Positions 288 to 9,687 of a DNA stretch of 10,564 nt are shown piece by piece. The stretch lies in assembly GCA_038851565.1 (NCBI GenBank), contig JAWCKV010000029.1, positions 1-10,564 on the forward strand, read 5' to 3'. Every line of letters begins with the position of its first letter. Positions within the stretch are counted from its first letter, which is position 1. This DNA is from Candidatus Hadarchaeales archaeon (GTDB lineage Archaea; Hadarchaeota; Hadarchaeia; Hadarchaeales; Hadarchaeaceae). The notes beneath the pieces were generated by a model that worked only from the letters and a program-made list of their open reading frames with translations, did not search any database and was not told where the DNA came from. The position numbers were made by a program, and so were the translations under genes.

Positions 288-394
288 TGGCGCCGGGGGT
301 GGGATTTGAACCCACGAGGCGCAATGCGCCAACAGGTCTCCGCGGGCATTTGCCCATAGCAACCTGCCGCCTTACCTGGCTGGGCCACCCCGGC
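288..394 (-). tRNA. tRNA-Ser(GCT) with 19-nt intron at 37/38, CCA encoded
   Basis: Reverse complement: GCCGGGG TG GCC CAGCCAGGTAA GGC G GCAGG TT GCT A [TGGGCAAATGCCCGCGGAG] A CCTGT, long variable arm GGCGC-ATT-GCGCC, T arm GTGGG TTCAAAT CCCAC, CCCCGGC, discriminator G, CCA. Anticodon at 360-358. Confidence 0.96.
338..356 (-). other. BHB intron of tRNA-Ser(GCT)
   Basis: Central helix U32U33G34C35 pairs with intron GCGG (two G-U pairs). Bulges are UA|U and AG|A, and the inner hairpin is GGGC-AAAU-GCCC. Canonical 37/38 geometry. Confidence 0.92.
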
Positions 395-493: not shown

Positions 494-828
494 GGCGACG
501 GGCGCACCCGAAGTCGACGCCTTCTCCGCACGCAGGTTGCCGGCTCCGAGCTCCGCTCCGTTGGCTGCCAGCGCCGAACGTCCTGACCACCCTTGCTGAT
601 TCGGATCGGGTTTTCCCGATCTTCCGCCCCTGGGGGATTCGCCAGGTAAGGGCGGTTCACCCCGACCCTCCGGCCGGGGCCCCGCCTCCGCCGACCCAGC
701 AGGACGGAGCATCCACGCCGGAAACCGGGCCTAACGCGCGGTTCCAGCGCCTTCTCCGGGCTTTCGGCCCACCGTAAACCCCATTTGTGGTCACAGGGGA
801 GGGGTAGCCCCCCGCCTAGCCCGCCGCC
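494..828 (-). ncRNA. ffs: Archaeal SRP (7S) RNA, 335 nt including a 21-nt insertion in helix 8
   Basis: Terminal helix 1 GGCGGCGGGC/GCCCGTCGCC (10 bp). Alu-like 5' domain GGGCTAGGCGGGGGG...CCCCTGTGACC with a UGUNR motif. Helix 6 CCCCGGCC-GGAG-GGTCGGGG. Helix 8 GAATCCCCCAGG...AGCAAGGGTGG followed by CAGGACGTTCGGCGC, as in euryarchaeal SRP RNAs. Confidence 0.95.
600..620 (-). other. Putative BHB intron within SRP RNA helix 8 (ATCGGGAAAACCCGATCCGAA)
   Basis: 4-bp central helix CGGA(626-623)/TCCG(605-602), 3-nt bulges AG|A (622-620) and AA|T (601-599), inner hairpin TCGGG-AAAA-CCCGA. Removal gives CAGG GGC GGAA GTC AGCA. Confidence 0.8.
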
Positions 829-832
829 AATA

Positions 833-1780
833 TTAACTGGAGCTCCTTAAGATAAGTTCTTTTCTGGGGAGTCCAAGCTCCTCCAGGATCAGGCATGATT
901 TGCACAGGGAAGATGGCGTGGGTTCGCCGCATCTCTCGCACCTGCGGAGGGATATATCCCCGGTGGCCTGGGAAAGCAATGGCTTGATCCTGTCGAACAT
1001 CCTGAGGATCATGAACTTAGAGTTCGGATGTTTCTCCTCGAGCGAGTTCAGAAAGTCCCTTATCTCGGAGTGAAGGCCGCCTGCGTACGGGCAGACTCCC
1101 ATGTGAACGTCGAGTCCCCTGAGCAGCGCGTAGATTGCCATCTCCTTCTCCGGAATTTCCCGCAGGGGCTTTATCCTGGGAACAAAGCCCTCTCTGGGCT
1201 GGTACTTCGGTCCCAGGCGGTAGAGCCTTGATATGTCAGACCTCACGTAGTTGAGCATTATCGCCTGTACCTCATCGTCCAGGTTGTGAGCGGTTGCCAG
1301 CCTGTCGGCCTCCAGCTCCTTGGCAGCGCGGTTCAGAAGCGACCTCCTCATGACACCGCATATGGTGCATGCCCCCATCCTCTTTCCCCTGGTTCTCCTC
1401 ACCATCTCATCCAGCGTGGAGCCGAAGATGTCCCTGAAGCTCACTGTGAAGTGCTCCACCCCCAAGATCTTCGCGTTTTTTCTGGCCGCCATAAGTCCGT
1501 GTTTCCTGTAACCCCTTATCCCTTCATCCACGGTGATCGCAACAAGCTCGCACCTCCTTCTCGAACAGTATTCGGCCAGCATGTGCATGCAGCTCACGCT
1601 GTCCTTTCCGCCGGACACCGCCACAGCCACCCTCTCCCCCGGGGATGTCAGACGGTTCTCAGCCATGGCCCTCCTGAACCTTCCCTCCACGGCCCTGATC
1701 AGGCAGCGGTCGCAGAGAAATAAACCGGCATACCTCATGTGGTACACGGCCCGGCGCCCGCATCTGGAGCAGGTCATCAT
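833..1780 (-). CDS. ttuA: tRNA 2-thiolation protein, TtuA/NcsA (TIGR00269-like PP-loop ATPase)
   Basis: N-terminal CSRC..CDRC Zn finger, PP-loop SGGKDS, CTICG, AHNLDD, CPY and C-terminal CERC..CKSC Zn finger. Adjacent to a GG-ending sulfur carrier. Start is ATG at 1780 or 1777 (track uses TTG 1786). Confidence 0.9.
   Translation of the reverse strand: MMTCSRCGRRAVYHMRYAGLFLCDRCLIRAVEGRFRRAMAENRLTSPGERVAVAVSGGKDSVSCMHMLAEYCSRRRCELVAITVDEGIRGYRKHGLMAARKNAKILGVEHFTVSFRDIFGSTLDEMVRRTRGKRMGACTICGVMRRSLLNRAAKELEADRLATAHNLDDEVQAIMLNYVRSDISRLYRLGPKYQPREGFVPRIKPLREIPEKEMAIYALLRGLDVHMGVCPYAGGLHSEIRDFLNSLEEKHPNSKFMILRMFDRIKPLLSQATGDISLRRCERCGEPTPSSLCKSCLILEELGLPRKELILRSSS
847..864 (-). promoter_or_regulatory. 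Putative SRP RNA promoter inside the 3' end of the thiolase gene
   Basis: Minus strand GAAAAGAACTTATCTTAA: purine run followed by an AT-rich box about 20-28 nt upstream of the SRP 5' end at 828. Confidence 0.5.
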
Positions 1781-1782
1781 CC

Positions 1783-2004
1783 TCAACCACCGGTCACAAC
1801 TCTCATGATCTCCACAGTATCTCCACTCTTCAGCCGCTCCTCCTCCGGCGATATCCTCCCGTTTATCCTGATAACGGCCGTCTCCCTGTTTATCCCCAGC
1901 TTCTTCAGGAGGTCGATGGCTGTTGATCCTCGCCTGAGCCTGACCACCCTGGTTCTCCCCTCGCCCACTATCTTTGATTTGACGACAACGGTTTTCGTGC
2001 CCAT
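1783..2004 (-). CDS. ThiS/MoaD-family ubiquitin-like sulfur carrier (TtuB/SAMP-like)
   Basis: About 73 aa with a beta-grasp pattern (LLKKLGI..AVIRING..LKSGDTVEI) ending VTGG-stop. ATG overlaps the upstream stop (TGATG); GTG 2007 is an alternative start. Confidence 0.9.
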   Translation of the reverse strand: MGTKTVVVKSKIVGEGRTRVVRLRRGSTAIDLLKKLGINRETAVIRINGRISPEEERLKSGDTVEIMRVVTGG

Positions 2005-3182
2005 CACCTCAGGAAGGATGGAATGAAGTTAGCGATGATGAGGAAGAGTATTACAAATGAGAGGATTTTAGTTATCCTGGCCGCGCTCCTCTTTGACATC
2101 CTGCACTCAAGCAGAGCGCGCAGCATGTAGCCCCCGTCCAGCGGGACCGCCGGGAGCATGTTGAAGAGCCCAACTCCAAGGTTTAGGATGAAAATCCACT
2201 TCAGGACGTCTATCAGCCACCAGGGTGCATGGGCCTGGTAGATGTATGGATGGAAAACAGGCGAGCCGACGAGCTCAGCCATGGCCACTCCCGCCACGTA
2301 GAGGGGATTGATGAAGTTGAATGTGTCAGGAGCAGATGCCAGGATCACCGGTAGAAAGGTTGAGTTCTCGTTTTCCGTCCTTCCCATGAGAACTCCGCTC
2401 ACCTCTCTCCCATCAACCACAGCATAAATCCTATCCCCCGCACTGAGCCCCTCTATGGCAGCGTAATAATCGTCAAAGTTTTCAATTGAATGTCCGTTTA
2501 TAGAGCACAGCCTCGCCCCCGGCGGAAAGTTGTCGACGTAGTTCTCGGCAGATGCCCAGATGTACACGCCGGGCTTCGGGCTCAGCAGGAGGAGTATCAG
2601 GCCAAGGCTTACAAATGCGAGGAGCACGTTTGCCACCGAGCCGGCCGCGTAAACCCTCATGCGCTTTGAGGGAGCGGAGGCCTCAAGCTGTTTCTCGTCG
2701 GGCTCGACAAATGCGCCGAAGAGCACGACGAGGACCATGGCCCCAACCGATCTTGTCCTGAGCCCATGCGCCCTGAGCATGATCCCGTGCGAGAACTCGT
2801 GGACAACAAGCAGGAGGCCAACAGCGATCAGCCAGGGAGCTATGGGCAGCCAGGGGATCAGTCCCGGGTATACCAGCATCACCCCCGGGGCCCTTATCGG
2901 GGTGGTGAGCATGATGATGAGGTTCGCGAGGAGCATCACGAATATGAAGGCCATCATCATGAATCCGGCGGCCGCCGCCAGGGTGCCGTATGCGATCCAT
3001 CCCCTCCTGGATAGCCCTGCCGTTCGGTCTATGAAACCCAGGCCCCTTTCGGTCCTCCACATTACGTATCCCGGGGAGACGGTGAACCCGTGCCTTTTAA
3101 GCTCGAACCAGCGGTTGATCAGCCCAATCGCATTCCAGCAGAGGACAAGGAGGGCAACAGCGAAGAGCGCGTCATCTAGCAT
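2004..3182 (-). CDS. Site-2 protease (M50) intramembrane zinc metalloprotease with PDZ-like insert
   Basis: HEFSH (HExxH), GAFVEPD, AGSVAN and FNMLPAVPLDGG motifs, several hydrophobic segments, GGGGTGA RBS at 3192-3186. Confidence 0.93.
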   Translation of the reverse strand: MLDDALFAVALLVLCWNAIGLINRWFELKRHGFTVSPGYVMWRTERGLGFIDRTAGLSRRGWIAYGTLAAAAGFMMMAFIFVMLLANLIIMLTTPIRAPGVMLVYPGLIPWLPIAPWLIAVGLLLVVHEFSHGIMLRAHGLRTRSVGAMVLVVLFGAFVEPDEKQLEASAPSKRMRVYAAGSVANVLLAFVSLGLILLLLSPKPGVYIWASAENYVDNFPPGARLCSINGHSIENFDDYYAAIEGLSAGDRIYAVVDGREVSGVLMGRTENENSTFLPVILASAPDTFNFINPLYVAGVAMAELVGSPVFHPYIYQAHAPWWLIDVLKWIFILNLGVGLFNMLPAVPLDGGYMLRALLECRMSKRSAARITKILSFVILFLIIANFIPSFLR

Positions 3183-3206
3183 TCTTCACCCCAATCCACT
3201 CTCTTT

Positions 3207-3219
3207 CAAAAAACTTAAA
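3207..3219 (+). promoter_or_regulatory. BRE/TATA-like promoter for cutA (likely leaderless mRNA)
   Basis: CAAAAAACTTAAA with TTAAA 26-30 nt upstream of the cutA ATG. No RBS seen before that ATG. Confidence 0.55.
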
Positions 3220-3244
3220 CCGATGGGAGAAGCCCTTAACACAG

Positions 3245-3556
3245 ATGTTTTGCGTTGTGCTCTCCTCCGCTGGCAACGCGCGCGAGGCGCTCCGCATCGG
3301 AAGGGCCCTCGTGGAAGAGGGCTTGGCTGGGTGCGCGACGGTCATCCCCGGAGGCGTCTCGATGTACAGATGGCGCGGGAGGGTGGAGAGGTCAAGGGAA
3401 GCCGTGCTCCTGATAAAGACCAGAAGGTCAAAGCTGAAGCGGCTGATGGCCAGGTTGAAGGAGATGCACAGCTACGAGGTGCCCGAAATCCTGGTGCTGG
3501 ACGTCTCCGGAGGTTCGGAGGAATATCTGGACTGGCTTAAGAAGGTGACGGAGTAG
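3245..3556 (+). CDS. cutA: Divalent-cation tolerance protein CutA
   Basis: 103 aa with LVEEGLAGC, SMYRWRGRVE..E..LLIKT, HSYEVPEI and EYLDWL signatures. Confidence 0.93.
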   Translation: MFCVVLSSAGNAREALRIGRALVEEGLAGCATVIPGGVSMYRWRGRVERSREAVLLIKTRRSKLKRLMARLKEMHSYEVPEILVLDVSGGSEEYLDWLKKVTE

Positions 3557-3564
3557 CTGGACGG

Positions 3565-4275
3565 ATGGCAAGGCCTGCTAGAAGACCCGACACAAGGGAG
3601 GTCGTGTACGCCGAGGACAGGTGGAGGATACTTGAGGACCTGCGGAGGGAGGCTGAAAAGATCATGAGGCCGCTGGAGGAGGCCGGGCTGAGCCCGACGG
3701 TCCACGGCAGCCTCGCGCGCGGGGATGTTGACCGCAGAAGCGATGTCGACGTCTTCATCCCGTTTGAGGTTCCCTCGTACAGGGTGGAGCTTTCCCTTGA
3801 GGGGGCCGGCATAACGTGGCTGAGGAGGGAGATAGTGATGGCCACGCCCTGGCAGCTCCCGAAGGCCCACATAACGATAGACGAGGGCAGATCGGTAACC
3901 TTCCCCCTCGTGAAGCCGGTGAGGACTGAACTGGAGTTCTACAGGTTCGGGGGCGCGATATCGTTTTCGGAGGTGTTGAAGGGCGCGAGGACGCCCGGCG
4001 TGGATAAGAGGCTCATGCTCATAGAGCCCACCCCTGACGGTCATCTGGAAAGTCCGGTGATCGGAAGGGAGGCAGAGGTCGCGAGAAGGGTTGGCGTAAG
4101 CCTGGACATAGTGAGGGAGAGGGTGCAGGTGCTGAGGAGGAGGGCGGAGATCGGCCACACGGGAATATTCGTTAAGAGGGAGCTGGCGCCGGATGAGAGC
4201 TTCGAGGAGGTCTTCAGGGAGCTGGTGAGGGAAAAGCCGGCAATGAAGCTCAGGATGAAGAGGCGACCTCCCTGA
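3565..4275 (+). CDS. Archaeal DNA polymerase beta-superfamily nucleotidyltransferase (COG2413-like)
   Basis: HGSLARGDV..SDVDVFI (GS...DxD) motif plus EFYRFGG, PGVDKRL and ERVQVL..R..IGHTGIF blocks typical of this archaeal family. Confidence 0.85.
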   Translation: MARPARRPDTREVVYAEDRWRILEDLRREAEKIMRPLEEAGLSPTVHGSLARGDVDRRSDVDVFIPFEVPSYRVELSLEGAGITWLRREIVMATPWQLPKAHITIDEGRSVTFPLVKPVRTELEFYRFGGAISFSEVLKGARTPGVDKRLMLIEPTPDGHLESPVIGREAEVARRVGVSLDIVRERVQVLRRRAEIGHTGIFVKRELAPDESFEEVFRELVREKPAMKLRMKRRPP

Positions 4276-5842
4276 ACCTGGATATGACGAAATCCCTGTC
4301 TAGAACTGAGAGGAAGTTGCCTGCCTTGGGACCTGAGGGCCTTCCCAGAAGGGAGATGTATATTGCCCTGAAGAGGGAGGATGGCTCAGCGCCGGCCGCC
4401 CTGCTGACCTCATATATGTGGTTGTGCAGTTCTACCGGGGTGTAGCTCCTCTTTGAGAGATCGGCTGCGAGCATTTCAAGTCCCTTTTTCTGCTTTTCGT
4501 CCAGGTTCCGGGCCTCCGGCGGCATTGTTTGTGCCACCTGGAAGCGCATGGTCTCAGGTGCATAGGACAGAACCCAGTTCTTCGCGCATGAGATCCTCCT
4601 GGCTGCCAGCCTGATGTCCAGCGGCGTCGGGTTCCTGAGCACGTTCCTGCTCTTCAGAATTTCGATCGCATGTTTCTCATCCCTCATGACCTGCGCCAGG
4701 GTCGCCGCAAGCCTGAAGGGCACGCGCTGGATCGGGGAATCCGGAGCCCCTTTTGGCTGGGAGAGCTCATATATCCTCTTCATCTGCCCGGCCTTCCTCC
4801 CCCTGGCCCTTTCGAGCCCGAAGTAAACCCTCTCCACCATGTCAAACTCCTCGTAGAGCTCAACGAGCGTGCTGGAGGGGTCGAACTCCCTGGCCTTCAT
4901 CGGCTTGCTCCTGAATATGAAATACCTGAGAAGCTCCGGCTCAGCCACCTGGAGCCACTGCGGCAGAGTGAAGACGATCCCCCTGGAGGACGACATGTGC
5001 CTGCCGCCGAGGCTCACCCACTCATACGGGACCGGATACGGGGCCCTGCACCTGAACACCCACCTGGCCACCTGTTTTCCCGTGTCATAGCTTCCCCCTG
5101 CCGCAGCGTGATCCTTTCCGAACGGCTCGCACGTCACCCCGAGCAGCTTCCACCTCGCCGGCCACTCCACCCTCCAAGTGAGCTTTCCCTCCCCCCTCGT
5201 GAAGTCCGCCTCGCCTGTGTGCCCGCAGCCCTGCACATAGTCGGTCCCCTCGCACCTGTAGCTCACAAGGTCACCCTTCCAGGAGCAGGCCCTGGTGGTG
5301 GATATCCTGCCGCAGTTCGCGCATATGGGGTCATAGGGGAGCCAGTCGTCGGGAAGAGGAGTTTCCCTGTACCTGTTCAGAATTCTTCTTATCCTCTCCG
5401 CGGATTTCAGGGCGGTCCTTATGAGCTCGGCCATTTTTCCGCTCCTGTACACCTCTGCTCCGGAGTATATCCTCACCTTTATGCCGAACTCCCTCAGAGA
5501 CCTCACGAAGTCTTTTGAAAAGTAATCCACGAAGTTCCTGTAGGCAGGGTCTGGAGAAGGAATGTTGACGTACGGGAATCCAAGATACTGTTCAAATTTT
5601 TCAGCGTTCTCTCCCTGGTTCAGCGGCCAGGGTACCCTCCTCATAGGATCGTAATCGTCCGCGTACCATATCGCAACGGCCTCCCCGCCGAGCTCTTCAA
5701 CCGCCTTCCTTATCCCGTCCGCTATGAACACGTCGTTGCAGTGCCCGATGTGCACGTGGCCGGATATGGATATTCCGCTGGCTACCACGTGTTCCTTTCC
5801 CCTCTTCATGAGCGCTCTTGCGACCCGATCAATCCAGTGCAT
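4250..5842 (-). CDS. lysS: Lysine--tRNA ligase, class I
   Basis: MHWIDRVA start typical of class I LysRS, SGHVHIGH (HIGH), DDYD, CANC Zn motif, GKLTWRVEWPARW, EPFGKDH..GGS, HMSSSRG (KMSKS-like) and Y..LLG..SGPK. Start set at ATG 5842 rather than the track's 5893. Confidence 0.96.
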   Translation of the reverse strand: MHWIDRVARALMKRGKEHVVASGISISGHVHIGHCNDVFIADGIRKAVEELGGEAVAIWYADDYDPMRRVPWPLNQGENAEKFEQYLGFPYVNIPSPDPAYRNFVDYFSKDFVRSLREFGIKVRIYSGAEVYRSGKMAELIRTALKSAERIRRILNRYRETPLPDDWLPYDPICANCGRISTTRACSWKGDLVSYRCEGTDYVQGCGHTGEADFTRGEGKLTWRVEWPARWKLLGVTCEPFGKDHAAAGGSYDTGKQVARWVFRCRAPYPVPYEWVSLGGRHMSSSRGIVFTLPQWLQVAEPELLRYFIFRSKPMKAREFDPSSTLVELYEEFDMVERVYFGLERARGRKAGQMKRIYELSQPKGAPDSPIQRVPFRLAATLAQVMRDEKHAIEILKSRNVLRNPTPLDIRLAARRISCAKNWVLSYAPETMRFQVAQTMPPEARNLDEKQKKGLEMLAADLSKRSYTPVELHNHIYEVSRAAGAEPSSLFRAIYISLLGRPSGPKAGNFLSVLDRDFVISRFREVASSS

Positions 5843-5889
5843 GTGAACCGAAGTAGGTTCTCGCTCTGAGCCTAAAAAAAGTGTATGCG

Positions 5890-6543
5890 TCAATCCTTAC
5901 CATACCTTGAGGTAAGGATCAGGCGGATTGTCCTCGCCTTTTTCCTTCCTATTCCGGGAGTCTCCATCAGCTCCTCCTGGGATGCGCTCATTATTCTCTC
6001 CACAGTTCCGAAGCGTTTCAGGAGCCTCTCAGCAAGCACACTGGAGATCCCGGGAAGCCCCTCCACCACAAAGCGCTGGATCTCCCCGAGCGTCAGCTTT
6101 CTGATCTTTGCCCTGATCGATATGTCCCTCCTCTCCTTCAGCTGCTCCCTTCTTGCGAGCGCAACGATGATCTTCGCCGTATCCTCCTCGTCCTCCGAGC
6201 GCAAGATCGACAAACCGTGATCCAGGACGATCGAGGCCATGGCGCCCCTGATTGCGTTCGGATGGATCAGCCTGCGCGAGAAGATTTTGTTTCCCTCGAC
6301 TATGAGGACGGGCCTCTCGCAGGACAGGCTCAGTTTACCCGCCTGTCTCACGAGCCTCCTGTCCACTATGGACTGGAGGAAGTCATCTGCAGACTTCCTC
6401 TCCACGATCACCCTGTCGCTGACGACGTAGTCCCCGGCCGGGAGATTTCTCAGCTCCACCTCGGCAAGCTCGCGCAGCCATCTCACTACGCCCGAGCCGT
6501 TTTCCCTCCTGTCCGCTATTATCCTTATCCTTCCCTCGCCCAT
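5890..6543 (-). CDS. XPF/ERCC4-family structure-specific endonuclease (nuclease + tandem HhH, no helicase)
   Basis: IADRRE, GDYVV..VERKSADD (GDxnERKx3D) and C-terminal GLPGIS / TPGIG HhH motifs. 217 aa. Confidence 0.9.
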   Translation of the reverse strand: MGEGRIRIIADRRENGSGVVRWLRELAEVELRNLPAGDYVVSDRVIVERKSADDFLQSIVDRRLVRQAGKLSLSCERPVLIVEGNKIFSRRLIHPNAIRGAMASIVLDHGLSILRSEDEEDTAKIIVALARREQLKERRDISIRAKIRKLTLGEIQRFVVEGLPGISSVLAERLLKRFGTVERIMSASQEELMETPGIGRKKARTIRLILTSRYGKD

Positions 6544-6558
6544 CGGGCCACCGCGCGC

Positions 6559-6912
6559 CTAGAAAAATGTGACCACGGAGGAGTAGATCATCACCCATGC
6601 TATGAGCCACATTATGAAGAAGGGCCAGAACCCGGTCATCCATATTCTAATGTTCTTCTTGACCTCAGACTGCTCCAGCATGGCCATCAGGTACCTGTTT
6701 CTGAACTTCTCGTTGCTCGCCAGCTTATATGAGGCGTAGAAGAGAAATATCGCAAGGAGGAGGCAGAGGGTGCCCATGCCGGTGCCGAGGGTCAGGCTTA
6801 TGGCCGAGGACAGCGCCCCCGTGACCATCCCGGTCAGCGCGAAGAACAGGGTAAGCTTAGCCTCGGAGAGCGCCTGCACCTTCGCCGGTGCCGCCTGTGC
6901 TGGAGCCTCCAT
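6559..6912 (-). CDS. Small three-TM membrane protein, possibly archaeal EMC6-like
   Basis: Three hydrophobic segments, C-terminal W..GFWPFFIMWLIAWVMIY and GGAGG RBS at 6924-6920. The CDS is likely real; the family call comes from recalled pattern only. Confidence 0.6.
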   Translation of the reverse strand: MEAPAQAAPAKVQALSEAKLTLFFALTGMVTGALSSAISLTLGTGMGTLCLLLAIFLFYASYKLASNEKFRNRYLMAMLEQSEVKKNIRIWMTGFWPFFIMWLIAWVMIYSSVVTFF

Positions 6913-6933
6913 GTTTCTTCCTCCGGTGAGGGC

Positions 6934-8862
6934 ATGAAGCTGGCTATGTCGCGCCTTGACATTATGGTCTGCGTCAGCGAGCTTGAAAACTGCATCGGAG
7001 CCAGAGTTGAGAGGATATACGAGGTTGATGGCTCAATCGTGATCTTGCTGCGCCAGCAGGAGGAGCGCATGTCGCTCGTGTGCGAGATGGGGCGCAGGAT
7101 CTCGCTGACGCGCAGAGCTCCCAGGGCACCCAGGATCCCCACGTCATTTGCCATGCTCCTGAGAAAGCACCTGATGAACTCCGTGCTCTCCGGGGTGGAG
7201 CAGCCTGAGCTCGAGAGGGTGGTTTGGCTTGAGTTTTCGGGGGATGAGAGGAAGGTACTTGTCGTGGAGCTCTTCGGGAGGGGGAACATCGTGCTGTGTG
7301 ACGGGTCAATGAGGATCATTCATCCATACAGGGCAGAGGCATGGAGGGGCAGAGCGCTGAGGGCCGGTGAGACGTACTCGCTTCCACCCGGTCCGAGGCC
7401 GAGGTTGGAGGGCATGGGCATGAGTGAGTTTCGGGGGCTGATTCGGGGAGCGCCGGATGTGGTCAGGGGACTAGCGGTGAACCTTGGGCTGGGCGGAACC
7501 CTTGCGGAGGAGATATGCGCGAGGGCCAGGGTCGGGAGGGAGCTCAATCCAGCATCGGCCACCGATGAGGACGTGAAAGCGCTCCTCTCCGCGATCTCAC
7601 AGGTGTTCGCCTCGGAGCCTGATCCCAGGATAGTGTACGAGGACGGAAGGCCGCTGGATGTCATTCCATTCGACTTCTCGATATATCTGGGCAGGGAGAT
7701 CAGGCGCTTTTCAACCTTCAACGATGCGCTCGACGAGTACTTCACGCACATCGCGGAAAGCGCGGCCGCCGAGCGCGCCAGCAAAAGGCTGGAGGAAGAG
7801 CTCGAGAGGCTGAGGAGAAGGCTCGCAGATGAGCAGGCGAGCTTCTCATCGCTCTACGAGAGGTCTGTGCAGATGAAGAGGAAGGCTGATCTAATATCTG
7901 TGAGGCATCAGTTCCTGGACGGGCTGCTCGCGGAGATGAGGTCACTTCTGCGGAAGGCCGGGCCAGAGAGATGCATGGAGGAGGTGAGAAGGGCCGCTGC
8001 CGAGGGGAAGGGGTGGGCAGGCTCGGTGAAGGGCATCAGAAGATCTGGGGAGGTGGTGGTTGAGGTCTCCGGGGAGGAGATTGCGCTTAACCCGGGAATC
8101 ACGGCGTTTCAGAACGCCTTGAGGTACTACGATGAGTACAAGAGGCTCGCGGAGAGATCCGCCGGGGCAAGGAGGGCCATGGAGAGGACAGCGGCGGAGC
8201 TCGAGCGCCTTCAGAGGGAGGGCCTTTCCGCGTTTCAGCCCCAGCCGAGGACGGAGCGGCTGTGGTTCGAGAGATACAGGTGGGCGATTTCATCCGGGGG
8301 ATTTTTGATCCTCGCCGGCAGGGACAGGAAGACGGGTTTTGAACTCGTTGCGAAGAGGATGGGTCCCGGGGACATCTACCTCCACGCGGAGATAAAGGGA
8401 GCACCCCACGTGATCATCAGGTCAGGGGGAAGGGAGATCCCGGAGGATGATCTGAGGGAGGCAGCTGAATTCGCCGCGATGCACTCCAGCGCCTGGGGTG
8501 ATGGAATGGGGTCGCTCAGGGTATTCTGGGTCAGGTCGGATCAGGTTTCGAGGCGCGCACCATCCGGGATGTATCTGCCAAAGGGGAGCTTCATGGTCAC
8601 GGGAGAGAGGAGATACATTGATGTGCCGCTGCGTGCGGCCGTAGGGGTGGTTGGCCTTGAGGGGAGGGAGGCGGTTATGTGCGGTCCGGTGAGCGCTGTG
8701 AGGAAACGATCCAGGATTGCGATCGAAATTTTGCCCGGGGGGAGGAATAAACGCGATGTGGCAGGGGAGATCGCGAAGAGGCTGGCGGAGGAAGGATTTG
8801 ATGTGCCGGCGGGCGAGGTGGAGCGCGTGATGCCTCCGGGCGGCTGCAGGATTCTCAGCTAG
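6934..8862 (+). CDS. rqcH: Ribosome rescue/quality-control protein RqcH (Rqc2/NEMF, NFACT family)
   Basis: NFACT-N (MSRLDI, F.MLLRKHL, Q.ELERVV, ELFGRGNIVL), HhH (LGLGGTLAEE), FNDALDEYF, coiled coils and NFACT-R (WFERYRWAISSGGFLILAGRD, HAEIKGAP, QVSRRAPSGMYLPKGSFMV). GGTGAGG RBS. Confidence 0.93.
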   Translation: MKLAMSRLDIMVCVSELENCIGARVERIYEVDGSIVILLRQQEERMSLVCEMGRRISLTRRAPRAPRIPTSFAMLLRKHLMNSVLSGVEQPELERVVWLEFSGDERKVLVVELFGRGNIVLCDGSMRIIHPYRAEAWRGRALRAGETYSLPPGPRPRLEGMGMSEFRGLIRGAPDVVRGLAVNLGLGGTLAEEICARARVGRELNPASATDEDVKALLSAISQVFASEPDPRIVYEDGRPLDVIPFDFSIYLGREIRRFSTFNDALDEYFTHIAESAAAERASKRLEEELERLRRRLADEQASFSSLYERSVQMKRKADLISVRHQFLDGLLAEMRSLLRKAGPERCMEEVRRAAAEGKGWAGSVKGIRRSGEVVVEVSGEEIALNPGITAFQNALRYYDEYKRLAERSAGARRAMERTAAELERLQREGLSAFQPQPRTERLWFERYRWAISSGGFLILAGRDRKTGFELVAKRMGPGDIYLHAEIKGAPHVIIRSGGREIPEDDLREAAEFAAMHSSAWGDGMGSLRVFWVRSDQVSRRAPSGMYLPKGSFMVTGERRYIDVPLRAAVGVVGLEGREAVMCGPVSAVRKRSRIAIEILPGGRNKRDVAGEIAKRLAEEGFDVPAGEVERVMPPGGCRILS

Positions 8863-8875
8863 CGCTGAATTGTTA

Positions 8876-8948
8876 AGCCGCCGGTGGGGATCGAACCCAC
8901 GACCTATCGCTTACAAGGCGATCGCTCTGCCGGCTGAGCTACGGCGGC
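8876..8948 (-). tRNA. tRNA-Thr(TGT), no intron, CCA not encoded
   Basis: Reverse complement: GCCGCCG TA GCTC AGCCGGCA GAGC G ATCGC CT TGT AA GCGAT AGGTC GTGGG TTCGATC CCCAC CGGCGGC T. Anticodon at 8915-8913. Confidence 0.97.
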
Positions 8949-8988
8949 TCAATAAAAGATTGCCCAGATGAAAAATAGGCTTTCCTCT

Positions 8989-9687
8989 TCATTTTTTGCC
9001 GAAGGCCAGCACGCCGTTCACTATATCCCTGAACGCCGCCTCCTGATCCTTCGCGCACACAACTCCCGATGCTATGAGCACGCCCTCGGCCCCCAGCTCC
9101 ATGGCCTTCGTCACGTCCTCCCCCCTTGTTATCCCGGCCCCGCAGAGGACCCTTATCTGTTGGTTGACATCCTTCACGACCCTGACGGACTCAAGCACCA
9201 CCTCCGGCCTGGCCTTGGACACGGGTATTCCCGTGCCTATCAGCTCAGGTGGCTCGACCGCGATCACATCCGGTGCCAGAGCCGCCACGCTCCTGCTCTC
9301 CGCAGTGTCTGCGGTGCACGCCACAGTCACGAGTCCTGCCTCCTTCGCCCTCCTTATGATCGCGCCAACCTGATCGAGCGGAAGCTTGTGCTCTGAGTGG
9401 TTCACGAGAGTTCCCACAGCACCCGCGGCCCTCACGCACTCGGGGGAAAGGAAACCGGTGTTCCTCCCGGGCTTTATCGGATCGACGTGCTGGGCGAGCA
9501 CAGGTATCTTCACCCTTTTCGCAATATCCTTTATATCAGGAGCCTGGGGGGCAACTGCCGACGATACTCCCATCTCCTGTGAGATGTCTGATATGATCTC
9601 TGCGAGACGCACTCCGTTATCCCCGGTCGACTCGGGATACGTCTTGAAGTTCACGATGACCAGCGGGAACCTCAATATGGTCACCAC
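8989..9687 (-). CDS. tpiA: Triosephosphate isomerase, archaeal type
   Basis: VNFKTY, AQH, NHSEH, AVEPPELIGTG, GAGI and GVLIASG motifs. About 230 aa; exact start uncertain (GTG 9687 or 9684). Confidence 0.96.
   Translation of the reverse strand: MVTILRFPLVIVNFKTYPESTGDNGVRLAEIISDISQEMGVSSAVAPQAPDIKDIAKRVKIPVLAQHVDPIKPGRNTGFLSPECVRAAGAVGTLVNHSEHKLPLDQVGAIIRRAKEAGLVTVACTADTAESRSVAALAPDVIAVEPPELIGTGIPVSKARPEVVLESVRVVKDVNQQIRVLCGAGITRGEDVTKAMELGAEGVLIASGVVCAKDQEAAFRDIVNGVLAFGKK

Follow-up and report, generated by a model that had tools for sequence, protein, structure and literature searches.

SRP RNA is a universal, essential RNA, and one gene for it was found in the window, a stretch of 10,564 nucleotides that forms contig C29 of a fragmented metagenome assembly (Hadarchaeota genome G000, 86.7% complete). 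The gene lies on the minus strand (Table 1), where Rfam model RF01857 matched positions 826-496 over its full length (model positions 1-317) with 131 bits as compared to a gathering score of 96.5. At this completeness no other Rfam match to SRP RNA occurred in the genome, and a second, intact copy, which the initial annotation had named as evidence that would speak against its reading, was thus not encountered. The gene is colinear with model positions 1-317 and includes helix 1, and inspection of the window sequence revealed no terminal BHB at the ends of helix 1.

A tRNA-Ser(GCU) gene with an intron of its own is located directly downstream, and a tRNA gene was also found 3' of the SRP RNA gene in two other loci, L177 and L214. 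Positions 833-9687 hold ordinary housekeeping genes encoding an NcsA/TtuA-like tRNA thiolation protein, a ThiS/SAMP-like protein, an M50-like protease, CutA, class I lysyl-tRNA synthetase, Xpf, RqcH, tRNA-Thr and triosephosphate isomerase. A sigma-70 promoter scan was set aside as uninformative in an archaeon.

Table 1. Features of the SRP RNA locus and intron-bearing tRNA loci elsewhere in G000 (positions without a contig label refer to the window; a slash in a bulge or cut site marks the predicted cut)
Feature	Positions	Strand	Remarks
Archaeal SRP (7S) RNA gene	496..826	-	331 nt with intron, 310 nt without; Rfam RF01857
5' exon	621..826	-	Last part is the loop of helix 8 with the closing G; junction in RNA contig
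3' exon	496..599	-	Rfam alignment; RNA contig; exon comparison
Helix-8 tip	594..632	-	Symmetric loop strands 632-629 and 597-594 (SRP54-binding motif) flank the interrupted stem-loop; role from available text of PMC2905702
21-nt BHB intron (very probable)	600..620	-	Not present in 49 of the 55 phylum genes, the other 6 having an insert at this site; missing from X1 record 1
Central-helix exon strand CGGA	623..626	-	After splicing, closing C and GGA of the tetraloop
Central-helix intron strand UCCG	602..605	-	Fold; intron comparison
5' bulge (AG/A)	620..622	-	Predicted cut 621/620; BHB rule and empty-site allele
3' bulge (AA/U)	599..601	-	Predicted cut 600/599; exon side closed by one weak pair only
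Intron inner hairpin	606..619	-	5 bp (619-615 with 610-606), 4-nt loop
Helix-6 GNAR tetraloop (GGAG)	668..671	-	Partner of the helix-8 tetraloop adenosine; Rfam alignment, available text of PMC2905702
tRNA-Ser(GCU) gene	291..394	-	Canonical 19-nt BHB intron 356-338; ARAGORN 122 after in silico removal
tRNA-Glu, intron-bearing	C15:11845-11962
tRNA-Gln, intron-bearing	C7:26131-26235
tRNA-Gln, intron-bearing	C17:16412-16508
tRNA-Gly, intron-bearing	C12:23300-23400
tRNA-Lys, intron-bearing	C7:22440-22591

The helix-8 insert and its BHB geometry

On the minus strand the tip of helix 8 reads, as initially described, CAGG (632-629), GGC (628-626), GGAA (625-622), G621, the insert (620-600) and TC AGCA (599-594). 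The tip comprises 27 nt in the gene versus 6 in the RF01857 model, and the extra bases are exactly the 21 nt that had been predicted to map as an insertion. The bounds 621/620 and 600/599 are unambiguous because they are fixed by the intronless allele of relatives, and the ends set by this empty allele are BHB cut points. A 4-bp central helix (626-623 with 605-602) is placed between two 3-nt bulges, and if the insert is removed by cuts behind the second base in both bulges, the result is a conserved host RNA that agrees with both the exact empty allele and the gap in an RNA contig described below. Helix 8 with its symmetric loop, 3-bp stem and GRRA tetraloop is present only after removal of 600-620; this rebuilt tip is part of the minimum-energy fold at 37 °C and absent from it at 70 °C.

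In the whole precursor the BHB is the minimum-energy form at both 37 and 70 °C. Among 100,000 shuffles of the 21 nt, four central plus at least two inner pairs arose in 8 and the full four plus five pairs in none. Pair probabilities at 37 °C were 0.58-0.83 for the central helix, 0.24-0.40 for a slid alternative and 0.01 for the outer pair G627:C598, beyond which lies a G.A mismatch. The outer helix of the strict hBHBh' form is therefore essentially unpaired, and we assign the motif to the relaxed HBh' type because of this low outer-pair probability; the earlier caveats of a single weak outer pair, a relaxed motif and a competing slid fold are all borne out by these values. A BHB scan allowing G-U pairs gave many chance hits in GC-rich tRNAs, so that the motif by itself is weak evidence, and the sequence-based case is carried by the exact empty site and by conservation, not by the motif alone. 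No further copy of the intron with up to 4 mismatches was found in G000.

Distribution of the insert among archaeal SRP RNA genes

The Hadarchaeota set consisted of 66 genomes, of which 55 had an SRP RNA match, one each, and all 55 genes were compared. Six carried an insert at the same junction (G000 21 nt, G001 20, G043 22, G037 23, G026 29 and G006 38). These were selected by the length of the Rfam match and not by motif, and every one of them begins after the same G and stops before the same UC. The six genomes span three families and five genera, and covariance-model scores of the intron-bearing genes were 127-163 bits over the full length. The insert was absent from the other 49 genes (48 parsed by program, G038 by eye), and 19 intronless genes have, in the helix-8 tip, the exact sequence predicted by removal of the insert. 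Presence and absence with retained BHB geometry, as the initial annotation had proposed to look for in relatives, was thus found.

Inserts occurred in 6 of the 27 genes whose stem allele is GGC/GUC and in none of the 28 others. The genus of G043 also contains three intronless genes, one of which (G016) has the exact empty site. A further Hadarchaeota-like locus, L170, was left out of the counts because its insert is identical to that of G026. On an exon tree of 59 rows, with G038 omitted, the intron label requires 8 changes, a number as low in 11 of 500 shuffles, and well-supported branches force only 2. We therefore describe the intron as patchy and do not count gains and losses, because the SRP RNA tree is too weak. 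Some intronless Hadarchaeota SRP RNAs, in f4/g15 and f1/g8 (for example L002, L007 and L022), have an altered symmetric loop with CGCA or AACA in place of AGCA and GAGG or TAGG in place of CAGG.

A motif scan of metagenome contigs yielded 66 loci. Of these, 17 are SRP RNA genes according to a profile search on all 66 and an Rfam search on 20 chosen loci, which agree with each other. The remaining 49 matches are not SRP RNA; two are glycine riboswitches by Rfam, and L182 had no Rfam match. Lineages were assigned by the labels that neighbouring proteins carry in their source records, and one of these proteins is labelled Thermofilum as well. On this basis six loci are Hadarchaeota-like, three adjoin a ribosomal protein labelled Candidatus Bathyarchaeota, seven form a group whose neighbouring protein is labelled Baldrarchaeota or Baldrarchaeia in some records, and L203 is unplaced. 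The SRP RNA at L203:183-485 (+; 303 nt with a 29-nt intron) appears to be without helix 6. A pattern scan of genome contigs was too loose, with at least 119 matches, one of them an intron-bearing archaeal SRP RNA gene (L170); the others among the matches listed are chance or ordinary bacterial SRP RNA, and the scan is silent on prevalence outside the phylum.

Because the scan pattern preset three central pairs and the bulge letters, these features provide no test in the metagenome loci. Among the features left free, an inner helix of at least 3 bp was present in 17 of 17 loci and a Watson-Crick fourth central pair in 13 of 17. The 23 intron-bearing genes (6 from the phylum and 17 from metagenomes) represent 18 distinct introns. 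In these the first four inner positions are paired in 68 of 72 cases as compared to a column-shuffle mean of 48.9, and none of 20,000 shuffles was as high, with the reservation that kin are not independent and relatedness inflates this figure. Exchanges at the inner pairs were T-A/A-T, C-G/T-A/G-C and G-C/A-T/G-T. The central helix is complete in 13 of the 18 introns and has an A.G mismatch at the fourth pair in the other five; this pair is A-U in seven and G-C in six. A GGGA tetraloop goes together with C as the partner in the intron, and GGAA with U (7) or with G (5, the A.G mismatch). The inner loops share no sequence, which indicates that they do not replace the tetraloop.

That the insert is an artefact of assembly or sequencing has a negligible probability: beyond the fragmented state of the G000 metagenome assembly nothing was found in its favour, and it is refuted by independent assemblies, in which different inserts occur at the same junction in five other genomes and 17 metagenome loci.

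Splicing machinery and RNA evidence

G000 encodes two EndA paralogues of 179 aa, each beside trpS. In both, Tyr, His and Lys are conserved at the aligned catalytic region, and the L1 loop, 9 residues long in A. pernix EndA, is absent. They are colinear with the EndA of M. jannaschii (1a79). The two similar endA-trpS pairs (L241 and L242; G000:C49:3322-3861 and G000:C10) could reflect duplication or contamination of the bin (2.4%). RtcB (partial, at a contig end) and SRP54 are encoded in the same genome. EndA was found in 59 of the 66 phylum genomes, mostly as a single copy, and gave no match in two intron-bearing genomes, G001 and G043, that are 88% and 76% complete. In the available text of PMC5829648, loop-less EndA is described as cutting relaxed motifs poorly, and Hadesarchaea as combining many disrupted tRNA genes with an EndA of the alpha4 type that has an L3 loop; this L3 loop was not located in the G000 EndA.

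Five further tRNA genes of G000 (Table 1) contain BHB-bounded introns outside position 37/38, in the D-arm, the 8/9 region or the anticodon stem. Three of the introns have no outer pair. ARAGORN missed or misread all five loci before in silico removal and scored them at 120-127 afterwards; a low-threshold ARAGORN run produced many false tRNAs and was used for leads only. The genome itself thus seems to have the capacity for relaxed introns, judged from the presumed splicing of its own tRNAs.

In metatranscriptome run X1, in which 0.06 of the words of the region were present, record 1 (118 nt, depth 53) aligns to positions 523-640 without mismatches and with one gap, of 21 nt at 600. It shows no differences to the G000 exons over 97 nt, and exactly 600-620 are missing, so that the junction anticipated in the initial annotation was recovered in one contig. 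The joint in record 1 is flanked by 77 nt on the longer side and by only 20 on the shorter, as compared to a bridging rule of 31 nt. Because a unitig is built from 31-mers in reads, words that span the joint and carry G000-specific 3' bases should exist in X1. Support from RNA consists of a single assembled contig, taken from one study that provides contigs without raw reads or a matching DNA run. Within positions 400-1000, no X1 contig crossed the intron or covered the flanks outside the RNA gene, and run X2 had no contig on the region and carries no weight either way. Among 62 SRP loci the exon stretches of the contig are closest to G000 (0 differences), G001 (6) and L177 (10), all intron-bearing, and intronless genes show 15 differences or more. 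Record 3 of X1 best matches the intronless genes of G014 and G005 on 9 listed variants, which indicates that the sample also contains transcripts of intronless relatives.

These data also bear on whether the interrupted copy could be dead, with an intact second SRP RNA gene missing from the assembly. The completeness of G000 (86.7%) would leave room for such a gene, but each of the six intron-bearing genomes has exactly one SRP RNA match, the exons still score 127-163 bits over the full length, the inner helices keep compensating and the exon sequence was found in an RNA library. We consider this explanation very improbable.

Searches for SRP19 (PF01922) were negative in all 66 phylum genomes, 26 of which are at least 90% complete, and the same search also missed a Sulfolobus control. 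A review from 2010 reported SRP19 in all archaeal subgroups. Helix 6 is kept in the phylum even so, and the missed control makes divergence of the protein possible. In the available text of PMC2905702 the adenosine clamp between helices 6 and 8 forms without protein and is highly conserved, and SRP19 is dispensable in Haloferax; the tetraloop should therefore matter with or without SRP19. From the failure to detect SRP19 in 66 genomes it follows that the contact probably forms without SRP19 or with a very divergent protein. The initial annotation had the tetraloop packing on helix 6 with SRP19 next to an SRP54-binding loop; SRP54 was indeed found, and the SRP19 part as written probably does not apply to this phylum, where the protein was undetected.

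Next to the SRP RNA gene in Baldrarchaeia-labelled loci (L201:971-1168 (+), L194:89-286 (-) and relatives) we observed a gene for a 66-aa protein whose language-model features (179 of 256 shared, 0.82) point to eukaryotic SRP9, a similarity that serves as a lead only. The 66-aa protein had no SRP9 Pfam match, and SRP9/14 homologues are reported as absent from archaea in the available part of PMC2905702.

The insert might instead be an unspliced extension of helix 8, tolerated as the phylum may lack SRP19, with the RNA contig derived from an intronless strain with identical exons. This would agree with the undetected SRP19 (0 of 66 genomes), the uninterrupted symmetric loop, the slid, continuous hairpin with its probability of 0.24-0.40 and the RNA of intronless relatives in X1. 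However, in an extension there would be no reason for a 4-bp helix with two 3-nt bulges to persist over 18 sequences of 20-38 nt while the inner loops vary freely, nor for the insert to start and stop at BHB cut points. The clamp between helices 6 and 8, protein-free and highly conserved in the available text of PMC2905702, also speaks against it, and no intronless gene among the 62 SRP loci is within 14 differences of the contig. We regard an unspliced extension as improbable.

We conclude that the G000 SRP RNA is very probably spliced and that helix 8 contains a genuine BHB intron. With a similarly high degree of confidence, positions 620-600 would be a tRNA-type intron that is cut by EndA at both bulges and ligated by RtcB. 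As sequence and folding show, the precursor forms a relaxed HBh' motif to which the exon contributes CGGA and AG and the intron UCCG and AA. The alpha4-type EndA would then cut at 621/620 and 600/599 and RtcB would join the exons, giving a product that, as suggested by the one RNA contig, crosses the junction without 600-620. In line with established SRP structure, the rebuilt three-pair stem with its GGAA tetraloop would clamp helix 6, and the adjacent loop would bind SRP54. As the only SRP RNA gene found is interrupted and the RNA contig lacks those bases, protein targeting in this organism likely depends on tRNA-splicing enzymes.

Origin of the intron and comparison with known systems

A search of the other 65 phylum genomes with the intron, allowing up to 3 mismatches, returned one match; the reversed control also returned one. 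In G022 a tRNA gene with several interruptions has a 21-nt intron in its D-arm, and the match coincides with this intron in register; the intron shares the 14-nt inner hairpin and the AG/ and AA/ bulges and has a central strand fitted to its own exon. Outside G000 the 14-mer hairpin has six exact copies, five of them in non-tRNA sequence, so that the word is common enough by chance; an in-register landing on an intron is not. Intron transposition is reviewed for tRNAs of Thermoproteales in the available text of PMC4090602, and the G022 match would fit such a transposition, as one case of a simple hairpin. For the longer hairpin of G026 no tRNA donor was found, and two other matches were in apparent coding sequence. 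The G022 tRNA gene itself (L243:1575-1440 (-)) has about three introns, was missed by Rfam and is read by ARAGORN as Phe after removal of three candidate introns.

The intron likely stems from a pool of mobile tRNA introns, and introns seem to have landed repeatedly at the helix-8 junction across archaea. A wider proposal would be that mobile tRNA-type introns repeatedly hit the helix-8 tip through exchange between tRNA and SRP RNA genes, were acquired there more than once (in Hadarchaeota, Bathyarchaeia, Baldrarchaeia and others), made targeting dependent on tRNA splicing and represent a living intermediate to the permuted, circular SRP RNA of Thermoproteus. We give this proposal an even chance. 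An intron processed by EndA and RtcB in SRP RNA would be a new host class for archaeal introns and would tie membrane-protein targeting to tRNA splicing; it also implies that SRP RNA annotation in these lineages must allow for introns.

No report of an intron inside SRP RNA was found in the literature searched, in which subscription journals were thinly covered. SRP was mentioned neither in PMC12397907 nor in a 2026 preprint on Asgard tRNA introns (10.64898/2026.10.13.758758). The chemistry is a known one, in a host RNA where it was predicted but, within the literature searched, is not described.

Pre-mRNA introns of cbf5 are among the non-tRNA substrates of EndA. In Haloferax volcanii such substrates comprise rRNA processing stems and the HVO_1309 5' UTR intron, and neither 'SRP' nor 'signal recognition' occurred in the available text of that study (PMC7714728). 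All of these show that a BHB is recognised outside tRNA, as would be the case here, and none of them lies inside SRP RNA. The non-canonical HBh' introns of pre-tRNAs (available text of PMC4090602 and PMC5829648) have the same 4-bp helix, two 3-nt bulges and inner helix, a weak or absent outer helix, a length of 17-38 nt and a patchy occurrence among kin. They differ in the host, which is a tRNA there and an SRP RNA without a tRNA body here. In the SRP RNA intron, an alpha4-type endonuclease lacking the L1 loop would have a natural relaxed substrate with no tRNA part; enzymes of this class have long been described as strict.

The closest parallel comes from Thermoproteus tenax and T. uzoniensis, in which the SRP RNA is permuted and circular (Plagens et al. 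2015, PMC4731332). According to the available text of this study, T. tenax EndA cleaves a BHB at the same SRP RNA position and in the same register in vitro, binding of SRP19 and SRP54 is weaker in the open RNA, and the permuted RNA is suggested to derive from an ancestor that had simple BHB introns. In the available portion of its supplementary file 1 the 'Open' construct ends and begins at CCGGGAG/GGAGCA, and the BHB substrate pairs CGGG AG/A with CCCG AA/G; we took the cut points from these construct ends and the BHB rule. On this reading the junction is the same nucleotide in both systems, after the closing G of the tetraloop and two bases before AGCA, as the initial annotation had stated, and the register is shared as well: a central exon strand CGG(A/G), bulges AG/A and AA/N and a partner strand ending in CCGAA. 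The introns labelled Bathyarchaeota and Baldrarchaeia further have the exon context and a CCCGAA end in common with Thermoproteus. In Thermoproteus, however, the halves are swapped, the termini lie in helix 8 and helix 1 is absent, whereas the G000 gene is linear and colinear, with helix 1 and normal ends. Its exons are separated by a closed 21-nt hairpin that would be removed, and the predicted product is linear rather than circular. The two also belong to different phyla and differ in their endonuclease, which is alpha4-like without the L1 loop in G000 and (alpha-beta)2 in Thermoproteus. The suggestion of a precursor state to permutation holds for the layout of the gene only; this layout supplies, at the same nucleotide, the intermediate proposed by Plagens et al. 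(2015) and makes the permutation model testable by genome comparison.
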